DNA from: an uncultured Acidobacteriaceae bacterium
GTDB lineage: Bacteria; Acidobacteriota; Terriglobia; Terriglobales; Acidobacteriaceae
Reading direction: 5' to 3'
Assembly: GCA_963808805.1 (NCBI GenBank)
Contig: CAWEGN010000011.1
Span: 34,583-98,582, forward strand
Length of the DNA: 64,000 nt
Part shown: positions 2,663-41,420 of the stretch, one piece after another
Layout of the letters: each line of letters opens with the position of its first letter
Numbering within the stretch: the stretch's first letter is position 1
Notes under the pieces: generated by a model
Database searches by the model: none
What the model was told of the DNA's origin: nothing
What the model saw: the letters and a program-made list of their open reading frames with translations, nothing else
Program-made: the position numbers and the translations under genes

Positions 2663-3860
2663 TCAATCCAGTTCGCTCACCGGCTCGCTGCGCCGTTCGC
2701 GAATGTTGTCAGGCAGCAATCCGACCAAATCCTGATCGTAAATATTCTTCTTGCGATCGGCCAGGGCCACAAAACGGTAGTAGACGTGCTGCAGCTCGTC
2801 GCGGCTCACCGTGAAGCCGAGTTGCTCCAGCCGATGGCGCAGTGCGGCGCGTCCGGAGTGCTTGCCCAGTACCAGGTGCGTCTTGGCCACGCCCACCAGT
2901 TGCGGCGTCATGATCTCGTAGCACAGCGGATTCGCCAGCATACCGTGCTGGTGAATGCCCGACTCGTGCGCGAACGCATTGGCCCCCACCACCGCCTTGT
3001 TGGGTGACGGCTTGAAGGTGATGAGCTGGCCCAGCACCTCGCTGGTGGGATAAAGCTGGTCGAGTTTTATGCTTGTCGTCACGCCGAAGCGGTCCCCGCG
3101 CACGTAAAGCGCCGCCGCAATCTCCTCGAGCGCCGCGTTGCCCGCCCGCTCGCCGATGCCGTTGATCGTGCACTCCACCTGCCGCGCGCCCGCCTGGATT
3201 GCGGCGAGCGAATTTGCCGACTGCGAGCCCCAGATCGTCGTGGCAGTGCGCCGAAAGCACTACGCCCTTTTCGTCGATCGCGGGAACCCGCTCGCGCACC
3301 TCGCGGAACATCTGCCCATACTCCTCCGGCGTGATGTAACCCACGGTATCGGGCATGTTGATCGTGGTCGCGCCCGCCTCGACCGCAACGCGCACCATTT
3401 CCACCAGGAAGTCGCGATCCGATCGCGTCGCATCCTCGGGCGAAAACTCCACGTCGTCGGCCAGCGACCGCGCCAGCCGCACGCTCTCGCCGCACTGCTC
3501 CATCGCCTCCGCGCGGCTCATCTTCAATTTGTATTCCAGATGCAGGTCGCTCGACGCCAGAAACACATGGATGCGCGCCCGATCGGCAAACTGCAGCGCC
3601 CGCGCCGCCATCTCGATGTCCTCGGTTTTTGCCCGGGCCAACGACGCGATACGCGGCTTCCGTATGGCCTGCGTGATGGTCGCTATGGCCGCAAAGTCGC
3701 CCTCCGAGGCCATGGCGAATCCGGCCTCGATGATGTCCACGCCCAGGTCGTCGAGGGCATGGGCCATAGTGAGCTTCTCCTGCGTGGTCATGCTGCAACC
3801 GGGCGACTGCTCGCCGTCGCGCAGAGTGGTGTCGAAGAAAACTACACGATCGCTGCTCAT
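2663..3860 (-). pseudogene. leuA: 2-isopropylmalate synthase / citramalate synthase family, short form (~399 aa), frameshifted as assembled
   Basis: Two overlapping minus-strand ORFs (2709-3860 and 2663-3178). The first carries FDTTLRDGEQSPG and HCHDDLGLAV. The second continues [18 protein letters not shown] and AHESGIHQHG. Shifting one base at the TTT run 3213-3215 restores ..GLAV.[19 protein letters not shown]. Confidence 0.85.
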
Positions 3861-3969
3861 CTGTGTGCCTGCTGGAACAACTTGCCTCGTCCAGACATTT
3901 CATTGTCGCCTATCCGGGCCGTATAAGGCAAAGTTATAATTCTTTGAGAATGAATTAGTATTGCTTATA

Positions 3970-4218
3970 GAAGCAGGGACCAGGTATTAGGGAATAGGGA
4001 ACAGAAAGCAGGCGCATAGGGAACCCTTGAACGAGTCGATGTTTGAAAGGGCACGACTTCAGTCGTGCCGTAAATGCGGTGAGACAAAGGCGGGCTTCAG
4101 CCCCTGAGGAACGTTCACCACGCAAATTGGAATTGTTCGGAGGTCTCTTAGGCAAATGCGGCGGGAGGGCCGCTTAGCTTCTTTCTACTCCCTATTCTCT
4201 ACTCCCTATTCCCTGCGC
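3970..4218. repeat. Composite repeat: inverted TAGGGAA/TTCCCTA-type heptamer arms flanking a core with GGCACGAC-TTCA-GTCGTGCC and GGGCTTCAGCCC hairpins
   Basis: Left arm (~3976-4015) reads ..GGTATTAGGGAATAGGGAACAGAAAGCAGG. Right arm (~4176-4216) reads ..CTTTCTACTCCCTATTCTCTACTCCCTATTCCCTG. They are reverse-complementary by eye. The core hairpin at 4049-4069 recurs at 12130-12150 and 12268-12288. Confidence 0.8.
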
Positions 4219-4233: not shown

Positions 4234-5157
4234 ATGGAACTCAGCCAGCTCGAAACCTTTCTCGCCGTGGCCGAAGAGCGCAGCTTTTCCCGCGCCGCCC
4301 AGCGCCTGCATCGCACGCAGCCCGCCGTCAGCCAGGTCGTCCGCAAGCTTGAAGCAGCGGTGGGCGAAACACTTCTTGACCGGTCCGCGCGCGACGGCTC
4401 GCTCACCGCCGCCGGCGCTCTGCTGCGCGACTACGCGCTGCGCCTCCTGGCCCTGCGGCGCGAGGCTTCGAGCGCCCTCGACGAGCTGAAGAACCGGGAG
4501 CGCGGCCAGTTGCAACTGGGCGCCAACGAATACACCTGCATGGTCCTGTTGCCGGCCATCGACGCCTTCCGGCGCGAGTTCCCTAACGTGGGCGTCACCG
4601 TGCAGCGCATGTTGGCCTCGCGTATTCCCGAGGAGCTTAATCTGCGCACCTTCGAGCTGGGCGTCATCTCCTTCCGCCCCGACCCCGCGCAGATCCGCAC
4701 CATTGCCGTCTATGGCGACAGCCTGGCCTTCATTGTGGGCCCGAGCCATCCGCTGGCCAGGGCAAAACGCGTCTCCATCCGCGACCTCGGCAACGAGACC
4801 TTCATCGCTCACAACGTAGCCTCGCCGCTGCGCCGCAAGGTCATTGAGGCCTTCCAGCGCTACCGCACTCCACTGCACATGGGTATTGAACTGCCCACCA
4901 TTGAGGCCATCAAGCGTTTTGTGGCCATGGGCAACGGCGTGGCCCTGGTTCCCCACCTCACGGTGGCGCGCGAGCTGGAAATCGGCGACCTGGTGCGCGT
5001 GCCGATCGATGAGTTGGACGTGCGCCGTGTGCTCCGCCTGGCTCACCGCCGCCAGGCCACGCTCTCCTACGCCGCCAAGGCCTTTTTGCACACGCTCAGA
5101 ACCCTGGCCAAAGAGATGGGACCGCCGTTTTACTACCATGTCGAGCGTGTCGGCTGA
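4234..5157 (+). CDS. LysR-family transcriptional regulator
   Basis: N-terminal HTH FSRAAQRLHRTQPAVSQVVRKLE and a LysR substrate-binding-like remainder. AAGGAG sits 6 nt upstream of ATG 4234. Divergent from the leuA-like gene. Confidence 0.85.
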   Translation: MELSQLETFLAVAEERSFSRAAQRLHRTQPAVSQVVRKLEAAVGETLLDRSARDGSLTAAGALLRDYALRLLALRREASSALDELKNRERGQLQLGANEYTCMVLLPAIDAFRREFPNVGVTVQRMLASRIPEELNLRTFELGVISFRPDPAQIRTIAVYGDSLAFIVGPSHPLARAKRVSIRDLGNETFIAHNVASPLRRKVIEAFQRYRTPLHMGIELPTIEAIKRFVAMGNGVALVPHLTVARELEIGDLVRVPIDELDVRRVLRLAHRRQATLSYAAKAFLHTLRTLAKEMGPPFYYHVERVG

Positions 5158-11904: not shown

Positions 11905-11970
11905 TCTCCCTGTTCCCTGTTCCCTGTTCCCTGTTCCTTGTTCCCTGTCCCTGTCCACCGTCCACCTCCC
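11905..11970. repeat. Tandem heptamer array (CCCTGTT-type)
   Basis: TCCCTGTTCCCTGTTCCCTGTTCCCTGTTCCTTGTTCCCTGTCCCTGTCC starts immediately after the gpsA TGA. Confidence 0.9.
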
Positions 11971-11978
11971 AATGAAGT

Positions 11979-12345
11979 GTCATCCTGAGCGGAGCGCGCT
12001 TGGGGCCCCGTGATCGCAACGCGATCATGGGGTAGCGGCCCGACGCTGGGGGGAGCCGAAGGATCTGCTTCTTGAAATTCTGGCGAAGGGTGGGATACCA
12101 CGAACCTCACCTCCACGAGTCTTGTATCAGGGCACGACTTCAGTCGTGCCGCAAACTGCCACCACCCTCTTAAGAAATAAAGTACGCGGCGAAGCCGCGC
12201 CCGACCCCGCCCACTGTCATCCCGAGCGTAGTCGAGGGATCTGCGGTTGCTTTTCGCTGTTTTGAAAGGGCACGACTTCAGTCGTGCCGCAAACCGCCAC
12301 CACCCTCGTAAGAAACAAAGTACGCGGCGAAGCCGCGCCCCTTGA
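11979..12345. repeat. REP/MITE-like cluster: two GTCATCCYGAGCG...GGATCTGC units and two ~80-nt GGGCACGACTTCAGTCGTGCC...GCGCGGCGAAGCCGCGC units
   Basis: GTCATCCTGAGCG..GAAGGATCTGC at 11979-12074 has an internal 12-bp hairpin. A short copy lies at 12216-12250. The near-identical units at 12126-12205 and 12266-12345 each contain two perfect hairpins. The 338-aa minus ORF across this region is an artefact. Confidence 0.85.
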
Positions 12346-12471
12346 CCTCCAAGGTTCACCCGCTCGCCGCGCCGTCTCCGCTGTGCTACCCTCAACCCAT
12401 CGCAAAACCAGAGACTTCCCGGCGCGAAGCCGATACACTCAAGTCGACGCGACCACCAGGGAGCGGCGACA

Positions 12472-14163
12472 TTGAAGACAGACAAACGGGAAACTCCTTC
12501 TCTGGTTTTGCCGGAAACCGTGACCACCGAAAAAAACAAGCTCTACTACGGCGACAACCTCGATGTCCTCCGCAGGTACGTCAAAGACGAGTCGGTCGAT
12601 CTCGTCTACCTCGACCCGCCCTTCAACTCCCGCCAGGACTACAACGTCCTATTCGCCGAAAAAGACGGCTCCCAATCCAGCTCCCAAATCCACGCCTTCG
12701 AGGACACATGGGAGTGGAACACCGACGCCATGCGCGCCTATGAGGAGATCGTCGAGCAGGCCGGCCGCGTCGCCGACACCATGCGCGCCTTCAAAACCTT
12801 CCTCTTTAACACCGACATGATGGCCTATCTCGCCATGATGGCCCCGCGCCTCGTCGAGCTCCGCCGCGTCCTCAAGCAAACCGGCTCCATCTATCTCCAC
12901 TGCGACCCCACCGCCAGCCATTACCTCAAGGTTCTGATGGACGCCGTGTTCGGGCCGCAGTTCTTTCGTAACGAAATCACGTGGAAGAGATCGCACGCAC
13001 ACAGTGACGCCAAACAGGGCGCTCAGCACTTCGGCAGAATCACGGATATCCTATTGTTTTACTCAAGAGGTGACAGAGCGATCTGGAATCCGCTGTACAG
13101 GCCGTACGACGAAAAGTACGTTGAACGCGATTACCGCAGGGTGGACGAGAATGGGAGACGGTATCGAATTGGCGATTTGAGCGGCCCCGGCGGCGCAGCG
13201 AAGGGAAACCCTAAATATGAAGTGATGGGAGTAACGCGTTATTGGCGGTATTCGAAGGAGAAGATGGATCAGCTTATAGCGGAGGGGCGCGTGATTCAGA
13301 CCCGTCCCGGTGCGGTCCCACAGTACAAGCGATATTTGGACGAGATGCCAGGCGCACCGATCCAGAACCTTTGGGACAACCTCCCTCCGCCGAATAATCG
13401 ATCAAAGGAAATGCTCGGTTACGCGACCCAAAAACCCGAAGCCCTCCTCGAACGCATCATCAAAGCCAGTTCCAACGAAGGCGACCTCGTCCTCGATCCC
13501 TTCTGCGGTTGCGGCACTACCGTCCAGGTCGCGCAGCGCCTCAATCGTCGCTGGATCGGCATCGATATTACCCATCTCGCCATCGGCCTCATCAAGAAGC
13601 GCCTCTCCGACGTCTTTGGACCCGAAGTTAAAAGCACCTACGACGTGATCGGAGAACCCACTGATTACGCAGGCGCGGCGCAACTGGCCGAAGAAGACAA
13701 ATATCAATTTCAGTGGTGGGCGCTCGGCCAAGTCGGCGCGCGGCCAGTCGATCAGAAGAAGGGCGCCGACCGCGGCATCGATGGTCGCCTCTACTTCCAC
13801 GACAACGATTCCGGCAAATCGAAGCAGATCATCTTTTCCGTCAAGGGCGGCCACATCACCGCTTCGCAGGTACGCGATCTTGCCGGAGTTCTCAGCCGCG
13901 AGAAGGCCGAGATCGGCGTCTTTTTGACCTTCGATGAACCCACCCGTCCCATGCTCCGCGAAGCCGCCGAAGCCGGACTCTACAAATCCTCTGACGGCAG
14001 CACCTACCCGCGCCTGCAAATCCTCACCATCCAGCAGATATTGGACGGTAAGCAACCCGACTATCCTGCCCACCGCCGCGATGCCACTTTCAAAAAGGCC
14101 CCGCGCAGCCGCCCCGCCCCCGCCGAAAACCTCACACTACCCCTGCTCCCCGGCGATGATTGA
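12472..14163 (+). CDS. Beta-class N6-adenine/N4-cytosine DNA methyltransferase fused to a C-terminal Mrr-like (restriction-endonuclease-fold) domain
   Basis: Motif IV is [11 protein letters not shown] near the N-terminus. Motif I is [16 protein letters not shown] later, which is the beta-class order. The C-terminal ~130 aa carry GADRGIDG ... IIFSVKGG, resembling the Mrr catalytic core. TTG start. No partner restriction gene nearby. Confidence 0.8.
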
Positions 14164-14284
14164 GACTGAGGCGCACTGCCCCCGCCACTCCGCCAACCCC
14201 GCTAACTCCGCTCTCCTCCTGGACTGCACCCCTAAAGTGAGACAAATTGTATCTTGACAGTTTGCAGTGAAGGGAGAACTGCAA

Positions 14285-14620
14285 ATGGGCCAAAGGTATG
14301 TGAAATACAGCAGAGAATTCCGGGAGTCGGCGCTGCGCCGCTTGGCGCTGGCGCCGAACGTAGCGCAGTTGTGCCGGGAGTTGGGTGTCTCGCGGCAGTT
14401 GTTATACCAGTGGCGGGATACCGAGCAGCGTGAGCAGCAAAAGCAGCTTCAGGGGGCCGAGCAGCGCCTGCGCCAGGAAAACGCTCAGCTCAAAAAAGCG
14501 CTGCTGAAGAGGACCCTGGAAGTGGATTTTTTGAAGGCTGCCTGCGAAAAGGTCGAGGCTCTGCGCCGGGCCAGTACCGGCTTTGGCGCAATGGCATCTG
14601 GAAAGCGATCCGGGAAATGA
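14285..14620 (+). CDS. IS3-family transposase OrfA (HTH + leucine zipper)
   Basis: MGQRYVKYSREFRESALRRL.. followed by coiled-coil LRQENAQLKKALLKRTLEVDFLK. Contains A6G (14492-14498) and the in-phase T TTT TTG (14527-14533). Confidence 0.85.
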   Translation: MGQRYVKYSREFRESALRRLALAPNVAQLCRELGVSRQLLYQWRDTEQREQQKQLQGAEQRLRQENAQLKKALLKRTLEVDFLKAACEKVEALRRASTGFGAMASGKRSGK

Positions 14621-15687
14621 TGCCGACCGCAGACAGCCTTGGTATAGAGCCGATGTGCCGGCTGGCTCAGGTCAGCCGCGCCGGATACTACCGTTTTCTC
14701 CAACCGCGCTATCCCGGCGAGGAAGAGATGGAAGTGCGCAACGCCATCCAGCAGATCGTGCTTGAGCATCGGGGCCGCTACGGCTACCGGCGGGTCAGCG
14801 CCGAACTCGGCCGCCGCGGCATGCGTGTCAACCACAAGCGCGTGCTGCGGCTGATGCGCGAAGACAACCTGCTGGGCGTCCAGCCCACGGCCTTCGTTGC
14901 CACCACCGGCTCGGACCACGACCGGCAGGTCTACCTGAACCTGGCCAGCCGCATGAAGCTGACCGCCATCAACCAGTTATGGGTGGCCGATATCACCTAC
15001 ATCCGGCTCGGCCAGGAGTTCGTCTACCTGGCCGTGGTGCTGGATGTGTTCTCGCGCAAAGTGGTCGGCTGGGCGCTGGATCGCACCCTTACAGCGCGGC
15101 TGCCGCTGCTGGCTCTGGAGCGCGCCATCACCCTGCGCCAGCCCGCGCCCGGTCTGGTGCACCACTCCGATCGCGGCATCCAGTACGCCTCCGAGCAGTA
15201 CACCACCCTGCTCGAAATCCACCGCATCCTGCCCAGCATGAGCCGCCCCGGCAACCCCTACGACAACGCCTTCTGCGAGAGCTTTATCAAGACCCTCAAG
15301 CGTGAGCAGATCTCGGCCCACCGGTACCAGTACATCGATGAGCTGAACGCCCATCTGGAACAGTTCATCGAGCAGTACTACAATCGGCTCCGGCTGCACT
15401 CGGCACTGGGCTACAGAACCCCGGAGGAGTTCGAAGCCGCGTGCTCCAACCAAACTGCCTCGGCAGGGCCGAGCGTGAGTTTTCCAAGGCATGAGGTAAT
15501 CTATCGATCCTGGAAAAAGCGCCGAGGCCGGCCGCCGAAAGCAAGCGGGGAGCCGGTTCCACCCAGCTCCCCAACTCACCCGATCGATGAGTCACCAGTT
15601 GGCTATTCCTTGACAGGTTGGTCTCCACCAGAGCCTGTCTCCGCTTCACCAACCGAAACCGAGTCTGCCGCAGAGGCAACAAAATGA
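14617..15687 (+). CDS. IS3-family transposase OrfB (DDE integrase core)
   Basis: DDE triad context WVADITY, HHSDRGIQY, NPYDNAFCESF. The -1 frame is open upstream back through the slippery sites. Confidence 0.88.
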   Translation: MMPTADSLGIEPMCRLAQVSRAGYYRFLQPRYPGEEEMEVRNAIQQIVLEHRGRYGYRRVSAELGRRGMRVNHKRVLRLMREDNLLGVQPTAFVATTGSDHDRQVYLNLASRMKLTAINQLWVADITYIRLGQEFVYLAVVLDVFSRKVVGWALDRTLTARLPLLALERAITLRQPAPGLVHHSDRGIQYASEQYTTLLEIHRILPSMSRPGNPYDNAFCESFIKTLKREQISAHRYQYIDELNAHLEQFIEQYYNRLRLHSALGYRTPEEFEAACSNQTASAGPSVSFPRHEVIYRSWKKRRGRPPKASGEPVPPSSPTHPIDESPVGYSLTGWSPPEPVSASPTETESAAEATK

Positions 15688-15892
15688 ACAGCACTTTACA
15701 GCAAACGGCAAACTGTCAAATTACAAACTGTCTCACTCAAGGGGTTCACCTCATCCCGTGTCAACCCCCTCCCACGCCCCCAATCCCCGCAACCCGCACA
15801 AAACACTCGCTAAATTCCCTTCCCCAACTTTGCCGATCATTTCTTCCTCCCGGCGCATACTCATTCCATGAGTGTTCAACCAGGCCTCCTCA

Positions 15893-15948
15893 CTGGCTTC
15901 TGGCTACTGGCTTCACTGATCCCTGACCCCTGATCCCTGATCCCTGTC
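15893..15948. repeat. Tandem heptamer array (CTGGCTN then CCCTGAT units)
   Basis: CTGGCTTCTGGCTACTGGCTTCACTGATCCCTGACCCCTGATCCCTGATCCCTGTC; 7-nt period read directly. Confidence 0.85.
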
Positions 15949-16126
15949 TTTAACTCCTTTGCTGTCTAGACTCTGTAAAGAAGTGGTTTAGAATCAATTG
16001 GTTATAGCGAAAGGCATACGCTAACCTCATGAATCCATGGAACTTATTTTCAGAGATGGGGGGAGGGGGGGCGGGGGTACCAAGTAGTCAACACCGGCGC
16101 GCCGCCTCAAGGGAGGCGCTATTTCT

Positions 16127-16173
16127 GATCTCTGATCCCTGTTCTCCGTTCTCTGTTCTCTGTTCTCTGTTCT
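16127..16173. repeat. Left part of the (GTTCTCT)n heptamer array interrupted by the IS4-family element
   Basis: GATCTCT GATCCCT GTTCTCC GTTCTCT x3 GTTCT, then the IS terminal repeat begins. Confidence 0.9.
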
Positions 16174-17484
16174 CTACTGTCCGGTTAAAAGTCGAACAGA
16201 GTCAGTTGGTTGGGATCGGGGATGGTTGCGATTGTGTAATCGGCTTGCTGAAGGGCCTGTGAAATGGGCATTTTCTCGAACAAGGTGACTGAGAGCACCT
16301 GGAGAAAAGTGTAGAGAGAGCCGGGTAGTTGAAGGCGTTTTTTGATGATGGCAACCAGCAGATAGACCGAGACGGCGATCCAAATCTGCGTTTTGACGGC
16401 GTTCTCGGTGGTGCCGTAGAAAGCTTTGATGCGCAAGTGCTGCTTGATCCATTTGAAGAACAACTCGATGCGCCAGCGGCTTTTGTAGAGGGCACAGATG
16501 GTCTTGGCAGGCAACGTGAACTGATTGGTAAGGAAGACCAGCCGCTTGCCGGTTTCCGGATCGTGAAAGCGGATGCGGCGCAAGTGAGAAGGATAACCGC
16601 GGTGGGTTCGGAACACCTCCAGGCTGACGAGCTGATCCACCATGATGCCGCTGGGCTTGTCGGCGGGACGGGAATAGACGCGGCGGACGCGCTGATCGCT
16701 GCGGGCGCGGGTGACGAAGAACGCTCCGGCGAGGTGGATGCGATGGAGGCGGAAGAAATCCATATAGCCGCGGTCCATGACGTAATAGGCCCCGGGCTCG
16801 ATCAGGATCTCATCGAGCGTGTTGACATCGTGTCGATCTCCGCTGGTGACGCGGATGAACGCGGGGATGGAGCCGCGCAGATCGAGCAGCGTGTGCACCT
16901 TGATGGCGGACTTGGCGGAACGGAAATGCGCCCAGGGAAACAGGCTCAGGCAAAGGTCGATGGTGGTCGAGTCCAGCGCGTAAGCGGCGGCATCGAGATC
17001 GATACCGAGGCTTTCGCTGGCATAGAGCCTGCGTGCCTGCGCCATCAGCCGTTGCGCCAGCTCGGCGTAGATGCGCCAGTCGCGCAGATGGTTGGCATCG
17101 GCCAGGGTAGAACGGCGCAGCGGTGCGCGAAAGCCCATGGCGTAGAGCTTGTTGGGTTGCGCGTTCAGACACGCTTCGATGTCGCGCAGGCTCTCGCGGT
17201 AGGTCAGTTGCGCGAAGGCCATGGCGCGATACTGCTCGGTGCAAGTCAACACACGGACGCGAACATCGCCGTCGTAGCGGGCCACGCTGCGTGCGAACGA
17301 GGTCCAGGGCACGAAGTCCATCAACTGCGCAAACAGCACCTTGCCGGCATTCATCGCTGCCTCCAGAGCAAATCTCTGGAATCAGCATCGCGGCAATTTC
17401 AAATCGACACCACTCTAAAATGTCTGCAACTGCGCGCACATCAGCAGCTTGCAAAATGAAACGCATCAGTTAACCGGACAGTAG
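16174..17484 (-). mobile_element. IS4-family insertion sequence (1311 bp)
   Basis: Perfect 15-bp terminal inverted repeats: CTACTGTCCGGTTAA (16174-16188) and TTAACCGGACAGTAG (17470-17484). One transposase ORF. Both flanks are the same heptamer array, so the target duplication is ambiguous (6, 13 or 20 bp all fit). Confidence 0.88.
16185..17354 (-). CDS. IS4-family DDE transposase
   Basis: 389 aa. The N-terminus FAQLMDFVPWTSFARSVARYDGD...AMAFAQLTYRESLRDIEACL is typical of IS4-group transposases with a DUF4372-like N-domain. This is recollection, not a search. Confidence 0.8.
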   Translation of the reverse strand: MNAGKVLFAQLMDFVPWTSFARSVARYDGDVRVRVLTCTEQYRAMAFAQLTYRESLRDIEACLNAQPNKLYAMGFRAPLRRSTLADANHLRDWRIYAELAQRLMAQARRLYASESLGIDLDAAAYALDSTTIDLCLSLFPWAHFRSAKSAIKVHTLLDLRGSIPAFIRVTSGDRHDVNTLDEILIEPGAYYVMDRGYMDFFRLHRIHLAGAFFVTRARSDQRVRRVYSRPADKPSGIMVDQLVSLEVFRTHRGYPSHLRRIRFHDPETGKRLVFLTNQFTLPAKTICALYKSRWRIELFFKWIKQHLRIKAFYGTTENAVKTQIWIAVSVYLLVAIIKKRLQLPGSLYTFLQVLSVTLFEKMPISQALQQADYTIATIPDPNQLTLFDF

Positions 17485-17611
17485 TGTTCTCTGTTCTCTG
17501 TTCTCTGTTCTCTGTTCTCTGTTCTCTGTTCTCTGTTCTCTGTTCTCTGTTCTCTGTTCTCTGTTCTCTGTTCTCTGTTCCCTGTTCCCTGTTCCCTGTT
17601 CCCTGTTTTCT
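17485..17611. repeat. Right part of the heptamer array: 13 x GTTCTCT, 4 x GTTCCCT, 1 x GTTTTCT
   Basis: Counted directly. The array ends 1 nt before the stop codon (17612-17614) of the ThiS/MoaD-like gene. Confidence 0.92.
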
Positions 17612-17938
17612 TCACCCTCCGGCAATCGCGCCCAGAATCAGCAGCGGCTCCCGTCCCGCCGCGACCGCATCTGGCAACGCTTTGTCCGGCGATTCCAGCG
17701 ACCAATCTTCTTCGCAAACAAAGAAGCGCAGAAACGCGCGCCGCTGGCCGGTCGAGTAGTCGCGAATCGTCCCGCGCAGCATGGGATAGCACGCTTCCAG
17801 AGCATCGAGCACGGCGCGCAGCGTAACCGGCGGACGCACTTCGACGTGCACATCGCCCTCGACGCACGCCAAATTGCGCAAATAATACGGCAGCCCCACG
17901 CGCACCGCCGCCGCACTCGTCTTCGCCGCCTCTCTCAA
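17612..17938 (-). CDS. MoaD/ThiS-family ubiquitin-like small protein ending in Gly-Gly (start uncertain; a GTG near 17905 is plausible)
   Basis: C-terminus ..[10 protein letters not shown]-stop. About 95-108 aa. The beta-grasp-like pattern [12 protein letters not shown]...VHVEV. Confidence 0.65.
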
Positions 17939-17964
17939 GGCATGGACCTCCCCAAGATTGCCTT

Positions 17965-17990
17965 CCTGTTCTCTGTTCTCTGTTCCCTAG
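17965..17990. repeat. Short heptamer array (GTTCTCT/GTTCCCT), containing the stop of the upstream gene
   Basis: CCTGTTCTCTGTTCTCTGTTCCCTAG. The TAG at 17987-17989 (minus strand) terminates the BNR protein. Confidence 0.85.
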
Positions 17991-33422: not shown

Positions 33423-33457
33423 CCCTAGTCCCTATGTCCCTATGTCCCTAGTCCCTC
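33423..33457. repeat. Heptamer array (CCCTAGT/CCCTATG units)
   Basis: CCCTAGTCCCTATGTCCCTATGTCCCTAGTCCCTC. Supplies the stop codon and last codons of the ferredoxin gene. Confidence 0.85.
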
Positions 33458-36580: not shown

Positions 36581-36625
36581 AGAAACAAAAAGGCCCTCCG
36601 CATCGCGGAGAGCCTTCCGTTTCCT
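36581..36625. terminator. Bidirectional hairpin terminator between convergent recJ and rplK
   Basis: GGCCCTCCG-CATC-GCGGAGAGCC at 36592-36614. It has an A-run upstream and TTCCGTTT downstream, giving a T-tract on the minus strand (..GGGCCTTTTTGTTTCT). Confidence 0.6.
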
Positions 36626-37096: not shown

Positions 37097-37237
37097 CCAG
37101 CTTCCAGCTTCTAGCCGCTAGCTGCTAGCTCATCCTTTTTGTTACAAATTTTGAGATCGAAACCCTCAGCTTTGCCCCAACCGGCCCCGCTAGACGATGA
37201 ACCGGCTAGAAGCTAGGAGCTAGAAGCTAGAAGCTCG
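37097..37237. repeat. Inverted CTAG-heptamer arm pair (37097-37131 / 37204-37237) with ~72-nt core
   Basis: Arms are CCAGCTTCCAGCTTCTAGCCGCTAGCTGCTAGCTC and GGCTAGAAGCTAGGAGCTAGAAGCTAGAAGCTCG. Occupies the nusG-rplK spacer. Confidence 0.88.
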
Positions 37238-37917: not shown

Positions 37918-38226
37918 TTACTGCGATCCGCCCAGCAGGCTCAATATCCCATGCGGCCCCATTATGGCGGTTTTGAAAATGAAGTCGACGATGAAGAAGA
38001 ACAACCCAAACAGGAAGGTCGCCACGATCACCACGCCCGTCGTCACCCTCACTTCCTTCCACCCTGGCCAAACCACCTTGCGCATCTCCGCGCGTACATC
38101 GCGCAGAAAGTCCGTAAACTCGCTCCACTTGCTCAGCGCGCCGCCCCCAAACTCGGCCAGGGCCCCAGGCTCCTGCCGTTTCGCGGACCGTTCTTCGCCT
38201 CTCTCGATTGCCGTTTTCGTCGCCAT
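37918..38226 (-). CDS. secE: Preprotein translocase subunit SecE
   Basis: ..FLRDVRAEMRKVVWPGWKEV followed by a single C-terminal TM. Conserved tRNA-Trp/secE/nusG synteny. Confidence 0.88.
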   Translation of the reverse strand: MATKTAIERGEERSAKRQEPGALAEFGGGALSKWSEFTDFLRDVRAEMRKVVWPGWKEVRVTTGVVIVATFLFGLFFFIVDFIFKTAIMGPHGILSLLGGSQ

Positions 38227-38239
38227 ATTTCCAACCCTT

Positions 38240-38349
38240 CTTCAGCCTTCAGCCGTCAGCCTTCAGCTTCATCCCGCTTGCGCTTGCCTCATCCGCTCCA
38301 TCCACCGTTGCAAAAGCTGAGAGCTGAAAGCTGACAGCTAATAGCTGTC
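38240..38349. repeat. Inverted heptamer arm pair using CTTCAGC / AGCTGAN units
   Basis: Left arm at 38240-38270 is CTTCAGC CTTCAGC CGTCAGC CTTCAGC. Right arm at 38315-38349 is AGCTGAG AGCTGAA AGCTGAC AGCTAAT AGCTGTC. They are complementary by eye. Confidence 0.88.
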
Positions 38350-38357
38350 TCTCAAAC

Positions 38358-38433
38358 TGGCAGGGGCGGAGGGATTCGAACCCCCAAGTCCGGTTTTGGA
38401 GACCGGCAGTTTAGCCGTTGAGCTTACGCCCCT
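38358..38433 (-). tRNA. tRNA-Trp (anticodon CCA), CCA encoded
   Basis: AGGGGCG acceptor, anticodon loop CTCCAAA, T arm GGGGGTTCGAATCCCTC; 76 nt. Confidence 0.9.
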
Positions 38434-38438
38434 GAAAT

Positions 38439-38544
38439 CAGCTCTTAGCTTCTAGCCTCTGGCTTCTAGCTTGGCCGGGGGAGAACCGAATACTAAACCT
38501 CCCGATACCGGAGCTAGGAGCTAGAAGCTAGCGGCTAGAAGCTG
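38439..38544. repeat. Inverted CTAG-heptamer arm pair with ~35-nt core
   Basis: Arms are CAGCTCTTAGCTTCTAGCCTCTGGCTTCTAGCTTGG and GGAGCTAGGAGCTAGAAGCTAGCGGCTAGAAGCTG. Occupies the rpmG/tRNA-Trp spacer. Confidence 0.88.
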
Positions 38545-38546
38545 CC

Positions 38547-38696
38547 TTACTTCGTTTCCTTATGCACCTGGTGCTTGCGGCAGCGCTTACAGAACTTCTT
38601 CAGCTCGAGACGGCCCGTGACCGTCTTCTTGTTCTTCGTCGTCGAGTAGTTCCGCTCTTTGCACTCGGTGCACTCCATTGTAATGATTTCCCGCAT
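38547..38696 (-). CDS. rpmG: 50S ribosomal protein L33
   Basis: Not in the ORF track (49 aa). The reverse complement reads [49 protein letters not shown]-stop, with two CxxC pairs. Confidence 0.9.
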
Positions 38697-38708
38697 CTCA
38701 AACCCCTT

Positions 38709-38810
38709 CAGTTCTCAGTTCTTAGTTCGTAGTTCTCAGTTTCCGCTGCGCCGCTCATCCCGTCGCCAGCCACAGTCGCGTCAACTGTAAACTGCGAACT
38801 ACGAACTTAC
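38709..38810. repeat. Inverted heptamer arm pair using CAGTTCT/TAGTTCG and AACTGNN/AACTACG units
   Basis: Left arm at 38709-38743, right arm at 38783-38810, with a ~20/22 complementary core stem. The right arm contains the tuf stop codon. Confidence 0.88.
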
Positions 38811-39994
38811 TTGATAATTTCCGAGATCGTGCCCGCGCCCACCGTCCTGCCGCCCTCGCGGATGGCGAACCGCAAACCCTTCTCCATGGCCACCGGCGTG
38901 ATCAACTCCACTTCCAGCTCCACGTTGTCGCCCGGCATCACCATCTCCACCCCCGCCGGCAGCTCCGCCACTCCCGTCACGTCCGTGGTGCGGAAGTAAA
39001 ACTGCGGCCGGTAGCCCTTGAAGAACGGCGTATGACGCCCCCCCTCTTCCTTGCTCAGCACGTACACCGAGCTCTTGAAGTTCGTGTGCGGCGTAATCGA
39101 TCCCGGCTTGGCCAGCACCATCCCCCGCTCCACGTCCTCCTTCGGCGTGCCGCGCAGCAGAATCCCCGCGTTGTCCCCCGCCAGTCCTTCGTCCAACTGC
39201 TTCTTGAACATCTCCACGCCCGTGCACACCGTCTTGCGCGTCTCGCGGAATCCCACAATCTCCACGTCCTCGCCCACCTTCACCTTGCCCCGCTCGATGC
39301 GGCCGGTGACCACCGTCCCACGTCCGGAGATAGAAAAAATATCCTCGATGGGCATCAGGAACGGCTGATCCACCGCGCGCTCCGGCCGCGGCACATACTT
39401 GTCCACCGCATCCATCAGCTCGTCGATCTTCGCCTCCCACTCCGCCTCCCCGTTCAAGGCGCCCAAAGCCGATCCCCGAATCACCGGCACGTCGTCGCCC
39501 GGAAACTGGTACTTGGTCAGCAGTTCCCGCACTTCCATCTCCACCAGGTCGATCAGCTCGCCGTCTTCCACCGCGTCGCACTTGTTCAGGAACACCACGA
39601 TGCAGGGCACCCCCACCTGCCGCGCCAACAAAACGTGTTCTTTAGTTTGCGGCATCGGGCCGTCCGTCGCCGCCACCACCAGAATCGCTCCGTCCATCTG
39701 CGCCGCGCCGGTGATCATGTTCTTGATGTAGTCCGCGTGACCCGGGCAGTCCACGTGCGCGTAGTGACGGTTCTTGGTCTCGTACTCCACGTGCGCCGTG
39801 GCGATGGTGATGCCCCGCTCCCGCTCTTCCGGCGCGTTGTCGATGGAGTCGAACGAGCGGAACACAATCTTGGGATTGTGCTTCTGCAATACCTTGGTGA
39901 TGGCCGCCGTCAACGTCGTCTTGCCGTGATCGATGTGACCGATCGTCCCTACGTTCACGTGCGGCTTGCTGCGATCAAACTTTTCCTTCGCCAT
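38807..39994 (-). CDS. tuf: Elongation factor Tu
   Basis: [21 protein letters not shown]; 395 aa. Confidence 0.97.
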
Positions 39995-40082: not shown

Positions 40083-40203
40083 GCTGCTTCTAGCTTCTAG
40101 CCTCTAGCTACTAGCTACTAGCTACTAGCTCAATCCTGCTTCTGCAAGCCACATCGGCTCAATCTCCCACCCTACAAGCTAGAAGCTAGTAGCTAATAGC
40201 TTG
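40083..40203. repeat. Inverted CTAG-heptamer arm pair with ~46-nt core
   Basis: Left arm ends (CTAGCTA)x4. Right arm is AGCTAGAAGCTAGTAGCTAATAGCTTG. The core aligns to the cores at 40.66 and 40.87 kb. Confidence 0.88.
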
Positions 40204-40266: not shown

Positions 40267-40299
40267 CTGTTCCCTGATCCCTGATCCCTGTTCCCTGCC
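40267..40299. repeat. Heptamer array (GTTCCCT/GATCCCT)
   Basis: CTGTTCCCTGATCCCTGATCCCTGTTCCCTGCC, ending 4 nt before the stop of ORF 40304-40612. Confidence 0.85.
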
Positions 40300-40303
40300 T
40301 TTC

Positions 40304-40612
40304 TCAGTAGTACGCGTACGCCTTCAAATACCTCTGCCTCAGTTCCAGCGGCACCGCTTCCACAAGTCTCAAATACCGCTCTCGCGTCAGCGCCTGGTCT
40401 GAAACCGGCAGCGCCTGGTACAAACCGATCGCGTCCTTACCCAGCAACCCGCGATCGAGAATCCCCTCGTAATCGCGGATGCGCCGCTTGGCCTTGCTCA
40501 CCCGGTTCAGGAAGACTTCCACGTCGCGCGCATCGAACGCTGCATCGATGAGCGCGTGAAGCCTCTGATATCCCGGCTCATCCTTGACCGCGATCGCTGC
40601 CTGCTCAAACAT
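40304..40612 (-). CDS. Hypothetical protein (102 aa) embedded between tRNA-Gly and tuf
   Basis: Clean ORF with host-like codon bias, bracketed by heptamer elements. No family recognised. Confidence 0.5.
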   Translation of the reverse strand: MFEQAAIAVKDEPGYQRLHALIDAAFDARDVEVFLNRVSKAKRRIRDYEGILDRGLLGKDAIGLYQALPVSDQALTRERYLRLVEAVPLELRQRYLKAYAYY

Positions 40613-40628: not shown

Positions 40629-40741
40629 CAGCCTCTAGCTTCTAGCCACTAGCTTCTAGCTCGATCTTGCCGCCTCAAACCTCAGAGGTTCAACCTGCCA
40701 CTACAAAAGCTAGAAGCTAGGAGCTAATAGCTAGTAGCTTG
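40629..40741. repeat. Inverted CTAG-heptamer arm pair with ~45-nt core
   Basis: Arms are CAGCCTCTAGCTTCTAGCCACTAGCTTCTAGCTC and AGCTAGAAGCTAGGAGCTAATAGCTAGTAGCTTG. Confidence 0.88.
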
Positions 40742-40745
40742 TCTC

Positions 40746-40820
40746 TGGAGCGGGAGACGGGACTCGAACCCGCGACCAACAGCTTGGAAGGCTGTGACTC
40801 TACCACTGAGTTACTCCCGC
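40746..40820 (-). tRNA. tRNA-Gly (anticodon UCC), CCA encoded
   Basis: GCGGGAG acceptor, anticodon loop CTTCCAA, T arm GCGGGTTCGAGTCCCGT; 75 nt. Confidence 0.9.
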
Positions 40821-40829
40821 CCGTAAAAC

Positions 40830-40939
40830 CAGCCTTTAGCTTCTAGCCACTAGCTTCTAGCCCGACCGTTCCGCTTCAAGCCTCGGCGGCTCGTCCGCCG
40901 CCGCCAAGCTAAAAGCTAGAGGCTAGTAGCTAGAAGCTG
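40830..40939. repeat. Inverted CTAG-heptamer arm pair with ~44-nt core
   Basis: Arms are CAGCCTTTAGCTTCTAGCCACTAGCTTCTAGCC and AGCTAAAAGCTAGAGGCTAGTAGCTAGAAGCTG. Confidence 0.88.
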
Positions 40940-41036: not shown

Positions 41037-41151
41037 AGCCAGCCACTAGCTTCTAGCCGCTAGCTTCTAACTCCGTTCTGCTCGCCCGTGCCTCGTCGCC
41101 TCGATCTTGCACTACCGAAGCTAGAAGCTGGGAGCTAGCAGCTAGGAGCTG
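41037..41151. repeat. Inverted CTAG-heptamer arm pair with ~46-nt core
   Basis: Arms are AGCCAGCCACTAGCTTCTAGCCGCTAGCTTCTAAC and AAGCTAGAAGCTGGGAGCTAGCAGCTAGGAGCTG. The right arm encodes the last codons and stop of ORF 41142-41369. Confidence 0.88.
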
Positions 41152-41369
41152 TCTTTCTCCCTGCGAATCTTCTCCGCATGACGGGCCAAAACCGTTCTCA
41201 ACGCCAGCCCGCCAATGATGAAGAGCGGAACCAGCCTTAACTCCACCGGTCTGCCAAACACGAGTACCGAACCGTCGCCCATCGTCAGCCAAGCCAGAGC
41301 CGCCAAAACCGCGAACATGGCCAGCGCCGCCCAGAACTTCCGGTCTAAATCCGCTTCGGCGCTCATCAC
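41142..41369 (-). CDS. Hypothetical small membrane protein (75 aa) embedded between tRNA-Tyr and tRNA-Thr(GGU)
   Basis: Two hydrophobic segments (FWAALAMFAVLAALAWL and LVPLFIIGGLALRTVL) and a basic tail. Confidence 0.45.
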   Translation of the reverse strand: MMSAEADLDRKFWAALAMFAVLAALAWLTMGDGSVLVFGRPVELRLVPLFIIGGLALRTVLARHAEKIRREKDSS

Positions 41370-41384
41370 TGCCCGCTACCCGCT

Positions 41385-41420
41385 GATCCTTGTTCCCTAG
41401 TCCCTAGTCCCTAGTCCCTG
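41385..41420. repeat. Heptamer array (CCCTAGT x4)
   Basis: GATCCTTGTTCCCTAGTCCCTAGTCCCTAGTCCCTG. Confidence 0.88.

Follow-up and report, generated by a model that had tools for sequence, protein, structure and literature searches.

In this work, we analyzed a stretch of 64,000 nucleotides (hereafter the window; contig CAWEGN010000011.1, positions 34,583 to 98,582) from an uncultured Terracidiphilus-like Acidobacteriaceae bacterium and, specifically, the long hairpins built of seven-nucleotide repeats that lie in its intergenic spacers. The window has a GC content of 61.5%, its NusG is 94% identical to that of Terracidiphilus metagenome-assembled genomes (MAGs), and its sequence is known only from soil and peat metagenomes, with no isolate RNA-seq. 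Its minus strand carries, between 36.6 and 41.9 kb, tRNA-Thr, tRNA-Tyr, an open reading frame (ORF) of 75 aa, tRNA-Thr, tRNA-Gly, an ORF of 102 aa, tuf, rpmG, tRNA-Trp, secE, nusG and rplK. Ten inverted pairs of heptamer arrays (P1 to P10) were found in the window, three of which (P2, P4 and P6) belong to classes other than the CTAG class of the remaining seven, and period-7 array positions number 247, well beyond chance, versus 0-6 for each other period from 3 to 12. Hairpins occupy 8 of the 9 spacers of the tRNA-tuf-rplK operon versus 2 of the 32 spacers elsewhere in the window (Fisher p = 4e-6). The orientation of the genes around the spacers (co-directional, convergent or divergent) was dropped as a factor, as the shared operon confounds it and too few spacers lie outside.

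This genome was examined through its 64 kb window alone, and the nusG neighbourhood from 80 related genomes served as the comparison set. The related loci plus the window comprise 832 kb with 451 heptamer arrays and 120 clearly complementary adjacent pairs, and the family was seen in one conserved operon in 80 related genomes plus two other spacers of the window. The same elements are present in independent Illumina MAGs and in Logan contigs from several soil and peat runs, and are therefore not assembly artefacts. Many short-read MAG contigs (L001-L080) end about 1 kb upstream of nusG, within the tuf/hairpin region; assembly is interrupted at core genes there, either by the heptamer repeats or by a second copy of tuf.

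Anatomy of the hairpins and pairing of their arms

Each element consists of two opposite-facing arrays of one heptamer, with 4-6 copies each, around a core of 20-170 nt; arm length is 34 ± 4 nt (4-6 units) and the median core measures 48 nt. The unit phase is YAG plus four bases, or its complement, in 447 of the 451 arrays, the 5' arm reading (YAGNNNN)4-6 and the 3' arm its complement. The polarity is strict, whichever strand is read: (YAGNNNN)n precedes (NNNNCTR)n in 59 pairs, versus about 2 with the reverse order, and these reverse cases are solely arms of two different hairpins flanking rpmG. Watson-Crick pairing at unit positions 1 to 7 is 0.81, 0.97, 0.97, 0.93, 0.71, 0.47 and 0.76, so that the stem is a series of runs of about six pairs, each broken by a mismatch at unit position 6. 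As a rule the element takes up the whole spacer: the 5' arm begins at or just past a stop codon or tRNA end, and the 3' arm stops at the next Shine-Dalgarno sequence, when a protein gene follows, or at CTG(Y)TTTT before tRNAs. Each hairpin-bearing spacer of the window adopts a long fold, with z = -3 to -6.8 versus shuffles on either strand. Three features were absent from the preliminary description of this DNA, which had been made from its letters only: the invariant phase, the strict polarity of the arms and the concentration of the elements in one operon.

Since neither arm departs from the range of 4-6 units, the lengths of the two arms are uncoupled (r = 0.03). The sole strand asymmetry found is in the cores, 98 of 111 of which are rich in G on the sense strand, and an alignment of seven elements yielded a common architecture with a weak core motif. 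Stop codons in all three frames were considered as the cause of the YAG/CTR phase: a stop occurs on one or both strands in 74% of units versus 67% expected, and ACAG, which is stop-free on both strands, is common, so this candidate was dropped as a weak effect.

The preliminary description had reported arm pairs of deviating sequence in three spacers, all of which are present. P2 (3973-4216) lies in the divergent leuA/lysR spacer, with arms at 3973-4011 (TAGGGAA) and 4178-4216 (TTCCCTA) that are 79% complementary around a 166-nt core; its right arm ends 18 nt short of the lysR ATG at 4235. P4 (38240-38347, minus strand), in the tRNA-Trp/secE spacer, has arms at 38240-38271 (CTTCAGC x4.7) and 38313-38347 (AGCTGAN units; AAAGCTG x5), a core at 38272-38312 and an RNA fold of -51.8 kcal/mol (z = -4.7). 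P6 (38708-38807, minus strand), in the tuf/rpmG spacer, spans the tuf stop codon to the rpmG Shine-Dalgarno sequence, with arms at 38708-38741 (CAGTTCT/TAGTTCG; TCAGTTC x4.9) and 38780-38807 (AACTGNN/AACTACG) and a fold z of -4.7. The CTAG-type units that had been assigned to most other loci were likewise recovered, in seven further pairs of AGCTTCT against AGCTAGA.

We then compared true partners with other pairings of arms. The left-to-right arm assignment of the ten window pairs beats permutation (p about 0.001), the signal coming from the three off-class pairs: complementarity to the own partner versus the best other arm is 0.79 versus 0.55 for P2, 0.84 versus 0.68 for P6 and, weakly, 0.72 versus 0.69 for P4. 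Over the 120 hairpins, complementarity is 0.81 within pairs and 0.46 between pairs. The expectation that true partners would also surpass random pairings of arms of the same class failed, as the values are 0.820 for true partners and 0.821 for foreign arms inside one unit class (120 hairpins), and 0.850 versus 0.858 for the seven CTAG-class pairs of the window. Since foreign arms of the same class pair equally well, the arms covary in the class of their unit, and neither in single bases nor in the order of units. Furthermore, the arm-arm identity of 0.81 obtained in the best register becomes 0.75 after a shift of 7 or 14 nt, and units within one arm share an identity of 0.78; as the mirrored register hardly differs in this respect from units within an arm, a hairpin is most aptly seen as some ten variants of a single heptamer, five in each direction.

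The proposal that loci differ in their unit but retain both complementarity and the 7-nt period holds in the window and far more strongly in orthologous spacers of the 80 relatives. The rpmG-tRNA-Trp spacer was compared in 76 genomes and the tuf-rpmG spacer in 50, and more than 10 unit classes were found at these two sites, among them CAGGGAT, CAGTGAT, CAGTTGT, CAGAGAT, TAGCTTC, CAGCTNT, TAGTTCG, TAGGGAA, AGTGAAN and CGTGAAT. In these spacers N4 and N5 agree between arms almost always, and own partners exceed permuted partners with z = 12.4 and 9.5. The excess of complementarity is +0.10 to +0.155 within a hairpin versus +0.03 to +0.04 with the neighbouring hairpin of the same genome, a roughly fourfold difference that makes the coupling specific to the pair and not just a local homogenisation. 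Altogether, the structure that is conserved is arm pairing in any register, in which positions 1-5 and 7 pair and position 6 is free.

Change between related strains and the remaining elements of the window

Strain comparisons were made where the SecE protein is identical and genes are about 99% identical. P5 (38446-38543, minus strand) lies in the rpmG/tRNA-Trp spacer, with arms at 38446-38472 (AGCTTCT type) and 38512-38543 (AGCTAGA type) forming a 92% inverted repeat, and its core holds an inner stem, GGGAG/CTCCC, with TTTC next on the sense strand. In strains L082 and L085 each arm of this hairpin is shorter by a single 7-nt unit, missing at mirrored places, and the inner stem reads GGAAG/CTTCC. 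A change of class was found in strain L003 at three adjacent minus-strand hairpins, namely P8 (40630-40739; spacer between tRNA-Gly and the 102-aa ORF; arms 40630-40661 and 40707-40739; fold z = -4.9), P9 (40829-40938; tRNA-Thr/tRNA-Gly spacer; arms 40829-40861 and 40906-40938; fold -70.6 kcal/mol, z = -6.2) and P10 (41041-41150; upstream of tRNA-Thr(GGT); arms 41041-41069 and 41117-41150). There, TCAG/CTGA replaces the CTAG/CTAG of the window in both arms of P8 and P9, and GTAG-type units (TAGCCAG/CTACNGG) stand in both arms of P10. The flanking tRNAs are identical and the three cores are still homologous to those of the window (roughly 60% by eye), which indicates change in place. In close strains with identical SecE, the P4 spacer contains a TAGGGAA array instead.

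Compensatory change, for which a test in orthologous spacers had been proposed, was found in L082, L085 and L003, and uncompensated change was found as well, between L001 and L002 (see below) and as single-arm unit indels among close strains. Indels of 7 nt or multiples of 7 occur between close strains and within metagenomes; an uncompensated example is P7 (40086-40201, minus strand; upstream of tuf; arms 40086-40130 and 40172-40201 of the AGCTACT/AGCTAGT class; 92% inverted repeat), which has a variant with a 7-nt AGCTAGA insertion at 40190 in two soil metagenomes. In the tRNA cluster, the arms that flank a tRNA gene are also mutually complementary, around tRNA-Gly (40709-40861) over 48 nt at 73%, so that hairpins of the CTAG class could pair in other ways across the tRNA.

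On average, array spacers diverge by 0.29 versus 0.09 at third codon positions of the flanking genes, and array-free spacers by about 0.05. Spacer divergence is bimodal, rpmG has a mosaic pattern of single-nucleotide polymorphisms (SNPs), and the presence or absence of an element varies at one and the same spacer. Element types are discordant with the gene tree, L003 sharing one with L074 and L001 one with L033. Two further length variants were recorded: L012 and L043 have about 770-800 nt with ORFs inserted in the tuf-rpmG spacer, and in L033 the nusG-rplK spacer measures 302 nt.

Unlike the other hairpins, P3 (37097-37235, minus strand) is conserved, arms and core, in all 80 genomes. It lies in the nusG/rplK spacer, with arms of the AGCTTCT/AGCTAGA class at 37097-37130 and 37205-37235 that form an 87% inverted repeat around a 74-nt core. 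RNAalifold applied to the nusG-rplK alignment chose the inner core stem instead of the arm-arm stem, and arm pairs were therefore counted against a named structure. Covariation of the arms is modest (83.6% of cells paired versus 82.2% in shuffles), with 61 double-change cells versus 36.3 in shuffles, and one arm pair is CG in 44 sequences and UA in 21. The core (37131-37204; columns 41-74 and 103-108 of alignment A2) contains the inner stem GCCGG..CCGGTT and an invariant CAAAAT in the 80 genomes. This inner stem has genuine compensatory changes, with many U·G and few A·C pairs, as expected of a real RNA stem, and the core could be a leader, an attenuator or a promoter for rplK. The one remaining pair, P1 (1319-1470, minus strand), occupies the leuB/leuC spacer; its arms, at 1319-1353 and 1439-1470, are likewise of the AGCTTCT/AGCTAGA class and form an 86% inverted repeat around an 85-nt core.

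Several arrays of the window are unpaired. Three on the minus strand are of the YAG type on the sense strand: (TGATCTC)x7 at 2608-2658, directly after the leuA stop codon; (CTGATCC)x4 at 40267-40297, after the 102-aa ORF; and (TCCCTAG)x3.7 at 41394-41419, after tRNA-Tyr, where strains vary in unit number and by point variants. Elsewhere, (TCCCTGT)x7 follows gpsA at 11907-11954; two like-oriented CTGATCC/CTGTTCT arrays lie at 15893-15946 and 16124-16175; and a near-pure, 18-copy TGTTCTC array at 17485-17611 is accompanied by a 3-copy TGTTCTC array at 17966-17985. An insertion sequence (IS) sits inside the CTGTTCT array (16124-17611), to the left of the 18-copy part, with a transposase ORF at 16185-17354 (DDE_Tnp_1 plus DUF4372) and perfect 13-bp terminal inverted repeats, ACTGTCCGGTTAA at 16177-16189 and TTAACCGGACAGT at 17471-17483. 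Five arrays of a single class and orientation (11907, 15916, 16124, 17485 and 17966) are found around a stretch that holds a DNA-methylase gene together with two IS elements (12472-17354). From their arrangement, these five arrays (11907-17985) look as if they were one ancestral array split by insertions, and arrays may accordingly be insertion targets.

Other observations concern the surroundings of these elements. At 33423-33456 lies a period-8 array, CCCTATGT x4.5, the sole non-heptamer tandem repeat of such kind in the window, and a 29-nt inverted repeat (83%) with no 7-nt period is found at 29436-29464/29560-29588, downstream of tRNA-Glu on its (minus) strand. The leuA gene (2663-3903, minus strand) is read as two overlapping ORFs, 2663-3178 and 3079-3903, owing to a frameshift or a sequencing error. 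The small ORFs amid the tRNAs upstream of tuf, of 102 aa (40304-40612) and 75 aa (41142-41369), both on the minus strand, are conserved among related strains, and no Pfam family is recorded for either. After rplK comes a canonical intrinsic terminator (36588-36618, minus strand; 14-bp GC-rich stem plus T-run), and the next gene is not rplA but recJ, on the opposite strand.

Constraint and possible origin

The explanation that we favor, with about an even chance of being right, is that these elements are hypervariable quasi-palindromes born by slippage and kept paired by selection on a long, register-tolerant stem, possibly aided by strand switching. Units would be gained, lost and spread within an arm by slipped-strand replication, as the 7-nt indels and the whole-arm switches between near-identical strains suggest. 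A unit variant taking over one arm would persist only if the other arm follows, and it could follow through selection on the long stem, helped by hairpin-templated strand switching between the arms. The outcome would be a hairpin of about ten units in one class, with classes that differ between loci and strains, and the elements would be tolerated or useful as self-contained stems in a heavily transcribed, tRNA-rich operon. In favor of this view, the hairpins are transcribed, with the limit that metatranscriptome contigs can contain DNA: one peat metatranscriptome contig crosses P4 from secE into tRNA-Trp (38203-38371) with no difference, and another crosses P6 from rpmG into tuf (38692-38840). 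Judging from their location and presence in RNA, the most likely role of the elements would be that of a self-contained stem that sequesters or insulates the spacer RNA and affects its processing or stability. Three things are demanded by the data: a fast turnover of units within arms, i.e. slippage; a strand-symmetric constraint or process that holds both arms in one class with any register tolerated; and a position-specific constraint on the unit, in which YAG is invariant and position 6 free, which is not what neutral concerted evolution would give.

A number of results weigh against selection on a stem as the explanation. The preliminary description had offered such selection as one of two readings and, taken as selection on an RNA, it lacks the expected signature: no excess of G·U over A·C was found on the sense strand, transition mismatches being 345 versus 343, and no folding advantage of the sense strand was found over 103 hairpins (z = -6.70 sense versus -6.43 antisense, p = 0.23). 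RNA-specific selection is therefore not demonstrated and the constraint, which bears equally on the two DNA strands, cannot be placed on the sense RNA alone. Stems of tRNAs were tried as a positive control for the G·U/A·C count and were uninformative, as a minimum-free-energy fold cannot contain A·C pairs. Also against selection on a stem stand the equal pairing of foreign arms of the same class, among the 120 hairpins and in the CTAG-class pairs of the window alike, and the lack of a detectable partner for about half of all 451 arrays. Between L001 and L002, which are 1.6% apart, the whole 5' arm of the tuf-rpmG hairpin differs (GGGACTA versus GGGATCA) and the 3' arm is the same. In genomes 1.6-3.5% apart, some spacers are swapped whole, cores included, with sharp hairpin boundaries, and the elements are dispensable at certain sites in some species, whose orthologous spacers there measure a mere 26-52 nt and have no hairpin. 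Finally, the invariant YAG and the strict polarity go beyond what pairing alone explains, and of all the features are the likeliest to point to something new.

The second reading offered at the outset, generation of both arms from one template without selection, by snap-back or hairpin-templated synthesis or by strand switching at the fork (quasi-palindrome correction) followed by decay, appears unlikely to us, although several observations fit it. Neither mismatches nor folding favor one strand, variation in the elements far outpaces that at synonymous sites, a unit was lost at mirrored places in both arms (L082, L085) and both arms switched class over a short divergence (L003); the many unpaired or degenerate arrays could be decayed elements, and the YAG-first polarity could reflect which nascent strand folds back. 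What is missing are the young, near-perfect palindromes that this process should leave: a complementarity of 95% or more is reached by a single stem of the 120, mismatches are clustered at unit position 6 instead of being evenly spread, and recent snap-back copying is therefore not demonstrated. Neither of the two initial readings is thus established in its pure form. In addition, identity in the mirrored register is no higher than that of units within an arm, and the cores span 20-170 nt, some with conserved content of their own. Somewhat less probable still is the replacement of whole elements, either by homologous recombination of spacer cassettes through the ultra-conserved flanking genes and tRNAs or by a mobile element of MITE or REPIN type; the arms would then match because every family of cassettes brings a matched pair with it. 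Entirely different elements in very close relatives do indicate replacement rather than gradual change, and the unalignable elements with sharp boundaries in strains 1.6-3.5% apart are joined by the discordant element types (L003/L074, L001/L033), the bimodal divergence, the mosaic rpmG SNPs and the variable presence at a given spacer. Nevertheless, cores do not recur at other loci (orthologous cores alone cluster, leaving 52 singletons), loop similarity within the window is marginal (scores of 13-15 versus a shuffled maximum of 12), no target-site duplications were seen, and the flanking rpmG and tRNA sequences at swapped spacers are as similar as background in most cases. Moreover, replacement leaves the origin of matched arms in new classes unexplained, and homologous cores with switched arms speak for change in place.

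We regard it as distinctly improbable that a dedicated, lineage-wide process writes head-to-head, YAG-phased arrays into the spacers of highly transcribed operons and rewrites both arms and neighbouring hairpins together; such a process, which could be a property of a polymerase or an enzyme acting at YAG, would also underlie the heptamer repeats of cyanobacteria, Beggiatoaceae and Bacteroidetes. That the arms are instead independent YAG-phased arrays of protein-binding sites (in single-stranded RNA or DNA or in duplex DNA), placed head to head and complementary only as a by-product, seems to us very unlikely. The universal phase, the fixed array size of about 5 units and the strict polarity would suit binding sites, as would the commonness of unpaired arrays, mostly of the YAG type on the sense strand (in the operon, 90 versus 46 of the CTR type); protein binding has been proposed for TAACTGA repeats (CAGTTAT here) upstream of starts in Beggiatoaceae and cyanobacteria (PMC4679880). 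A protein that recognizes YAG, however, gives no reason for the two arms to share N4, N5 and N7, and N4 is 93% paired with more than 10 classes at one orthologous spacer. The least probable of the explanations is that these are ordinary intrinsic terminators or attenuators with lengthened stems. Hairpins before tRNAs do end in CTG(Y)TTTT, and the shortest orthologues have stems of 6-10 bp followed by a T-run (26 nt in L059; 39 nt in L070 and L071), L059 and L070 resembling small terminator hairpins with one or two units per arm. But a T-run follows the hairpin solely where a tRNA comes next, the hairpins before protein genes end at a Shine-Dalgarno sequence instead, and hairpins stand between every gene of the operon. 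Stems measure about 34 bp, with cores of 40 nt. A terminator scan picked up the canonical short GC-rich terminator at 36618-36588 and passed over the hairpins; as ordinary short terminators are present in the organism, the hairpins are not its terminators in general.

Relation to known repeats

An Rfam scan returned tRNAs and spurious microRNA-like matches, drawn by the long hairpins, and no family for the elements; a search of the literature for heptamer or palindromic repeats in Acidobacteria found nothing. Among known systems, the one nearest to these elements is the P6b stem of the Nostoc tRNA-Leu(UAA) group I intron, which is made of complementary heptanucleotide repeats of Class I (TDNGATT) or Class II (NNTGAGT); both classes give one structure, their distribution departs from phylogeny, and 7-nt indels on one or both sides of the stem cause its length variation (PMC4476775). 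The two systems have in common the stems of complementary 7-nt repeats, the alternative classes at one site and the 7-nt indels. Whereas P6b is one stem with two classes in a catalytic RNA of cyanobacteria, the elements described here are intergenic, very numerous per genome and of more than 10 classes. They also differ from P6b in their universal YAG phase, strict polarity and periodic mismatch, and nothing in them points to a constraint specific to RNA. Their location in spacers, the restriction of genuine Rfam matches to tRNAs and the lack of a sense-strand bias argue against membership in a structured functional RNA of the group I intron type.

The elements resemble STRR and other long simple sequence repeats in being tandem heptamers in intergenic DNA that are longer than chance and unstable in copy number, but those are described as direct arrays, and inverted, co-varying pairs around a core fall outside their definition. 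STRR1 (CCCCAGT) and STRR3 (CAACAGT) may likewise be readable as CAG plus four bases. According to Mrazek (2007), as cited in PMC4679880, heptamers are the commonest long repeat unit in prokaryotes, and polymerase slippage has been proposed. MacGregor (2015; PMC4679880) described direct repeats of TAACTGA, with no known function, that directly precede start codons, some of them of ribosomal-protein genes, in marine Beggiatoaceae, Cyanobacteria and Bacteroidetes; these have one fixed unit, in 169 direct sets and one inverted, overlap the ribosome-binding site and were not described as hairpins. The CAGTTNT class found here includes CAGTTAT, whose complement is TAACTGA; the latter is oriented as our 3' arms, although these end just before a normal Shine-Dalgarno sequence instead of overlapping the ribosome-binding site.

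REP and BIME elements are extragenic palindromes in operon spacers that are transcribed and strand-symmetric, and REPINs are inverted doublets that form long hairpins. REPs, however, have one conserved sequence in many copies per genome and are tied to the RAYT transposase, whereas here, in the 64 kb of genome seen, the repeat unit alone recurs and the arms are internally periodic. The REP/REPIN identity was rejected on the unrelated cores between loci, the arms sharing the unit alone, and that of a MITE on the lack of duplications at the element ends and of shared internal sequences; as for an inverton, no reverse-orientation core matches were found among orthologues, save one weak 20-nt match. 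Quasi-palindromes are known from E. coli as hotspots of template switching (Ripley model), in which imperfect inverted repeats mutate fast, in a templated manner that restores complementarity. Strand symmetry and coordinated changes of the arms are shared with these hotspots, which are a mutational mechanism and not an element family, but the clustered, arm-templated changes that leave near-perfect stems were not seen here. Relative to the known heptamer systems, what is new is a hairpin family with a universal YAG phase, a strict polarity, a periodic mismatch and a rich switching of classes.

No other long simple repeat is as common in bacteria as the heptamer, and the question of its function in cyanobacteria is decades old. 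In practical terms, the elements break short-read assemblies at core genes, and the spacers that contain them are usable as hypervariable strain markers. This abundant lineage of soil Acidobacteria offers a natural experiment, in which one spacer with conserved flanks has more than ten repeat classes among relatives, its arms being almost always matched. The system makes it testable whether structure or sequence is maintained, whether the constraint acts on DNA or on RNA, and whether slippage together with strand switching is the source of co-varying arms.

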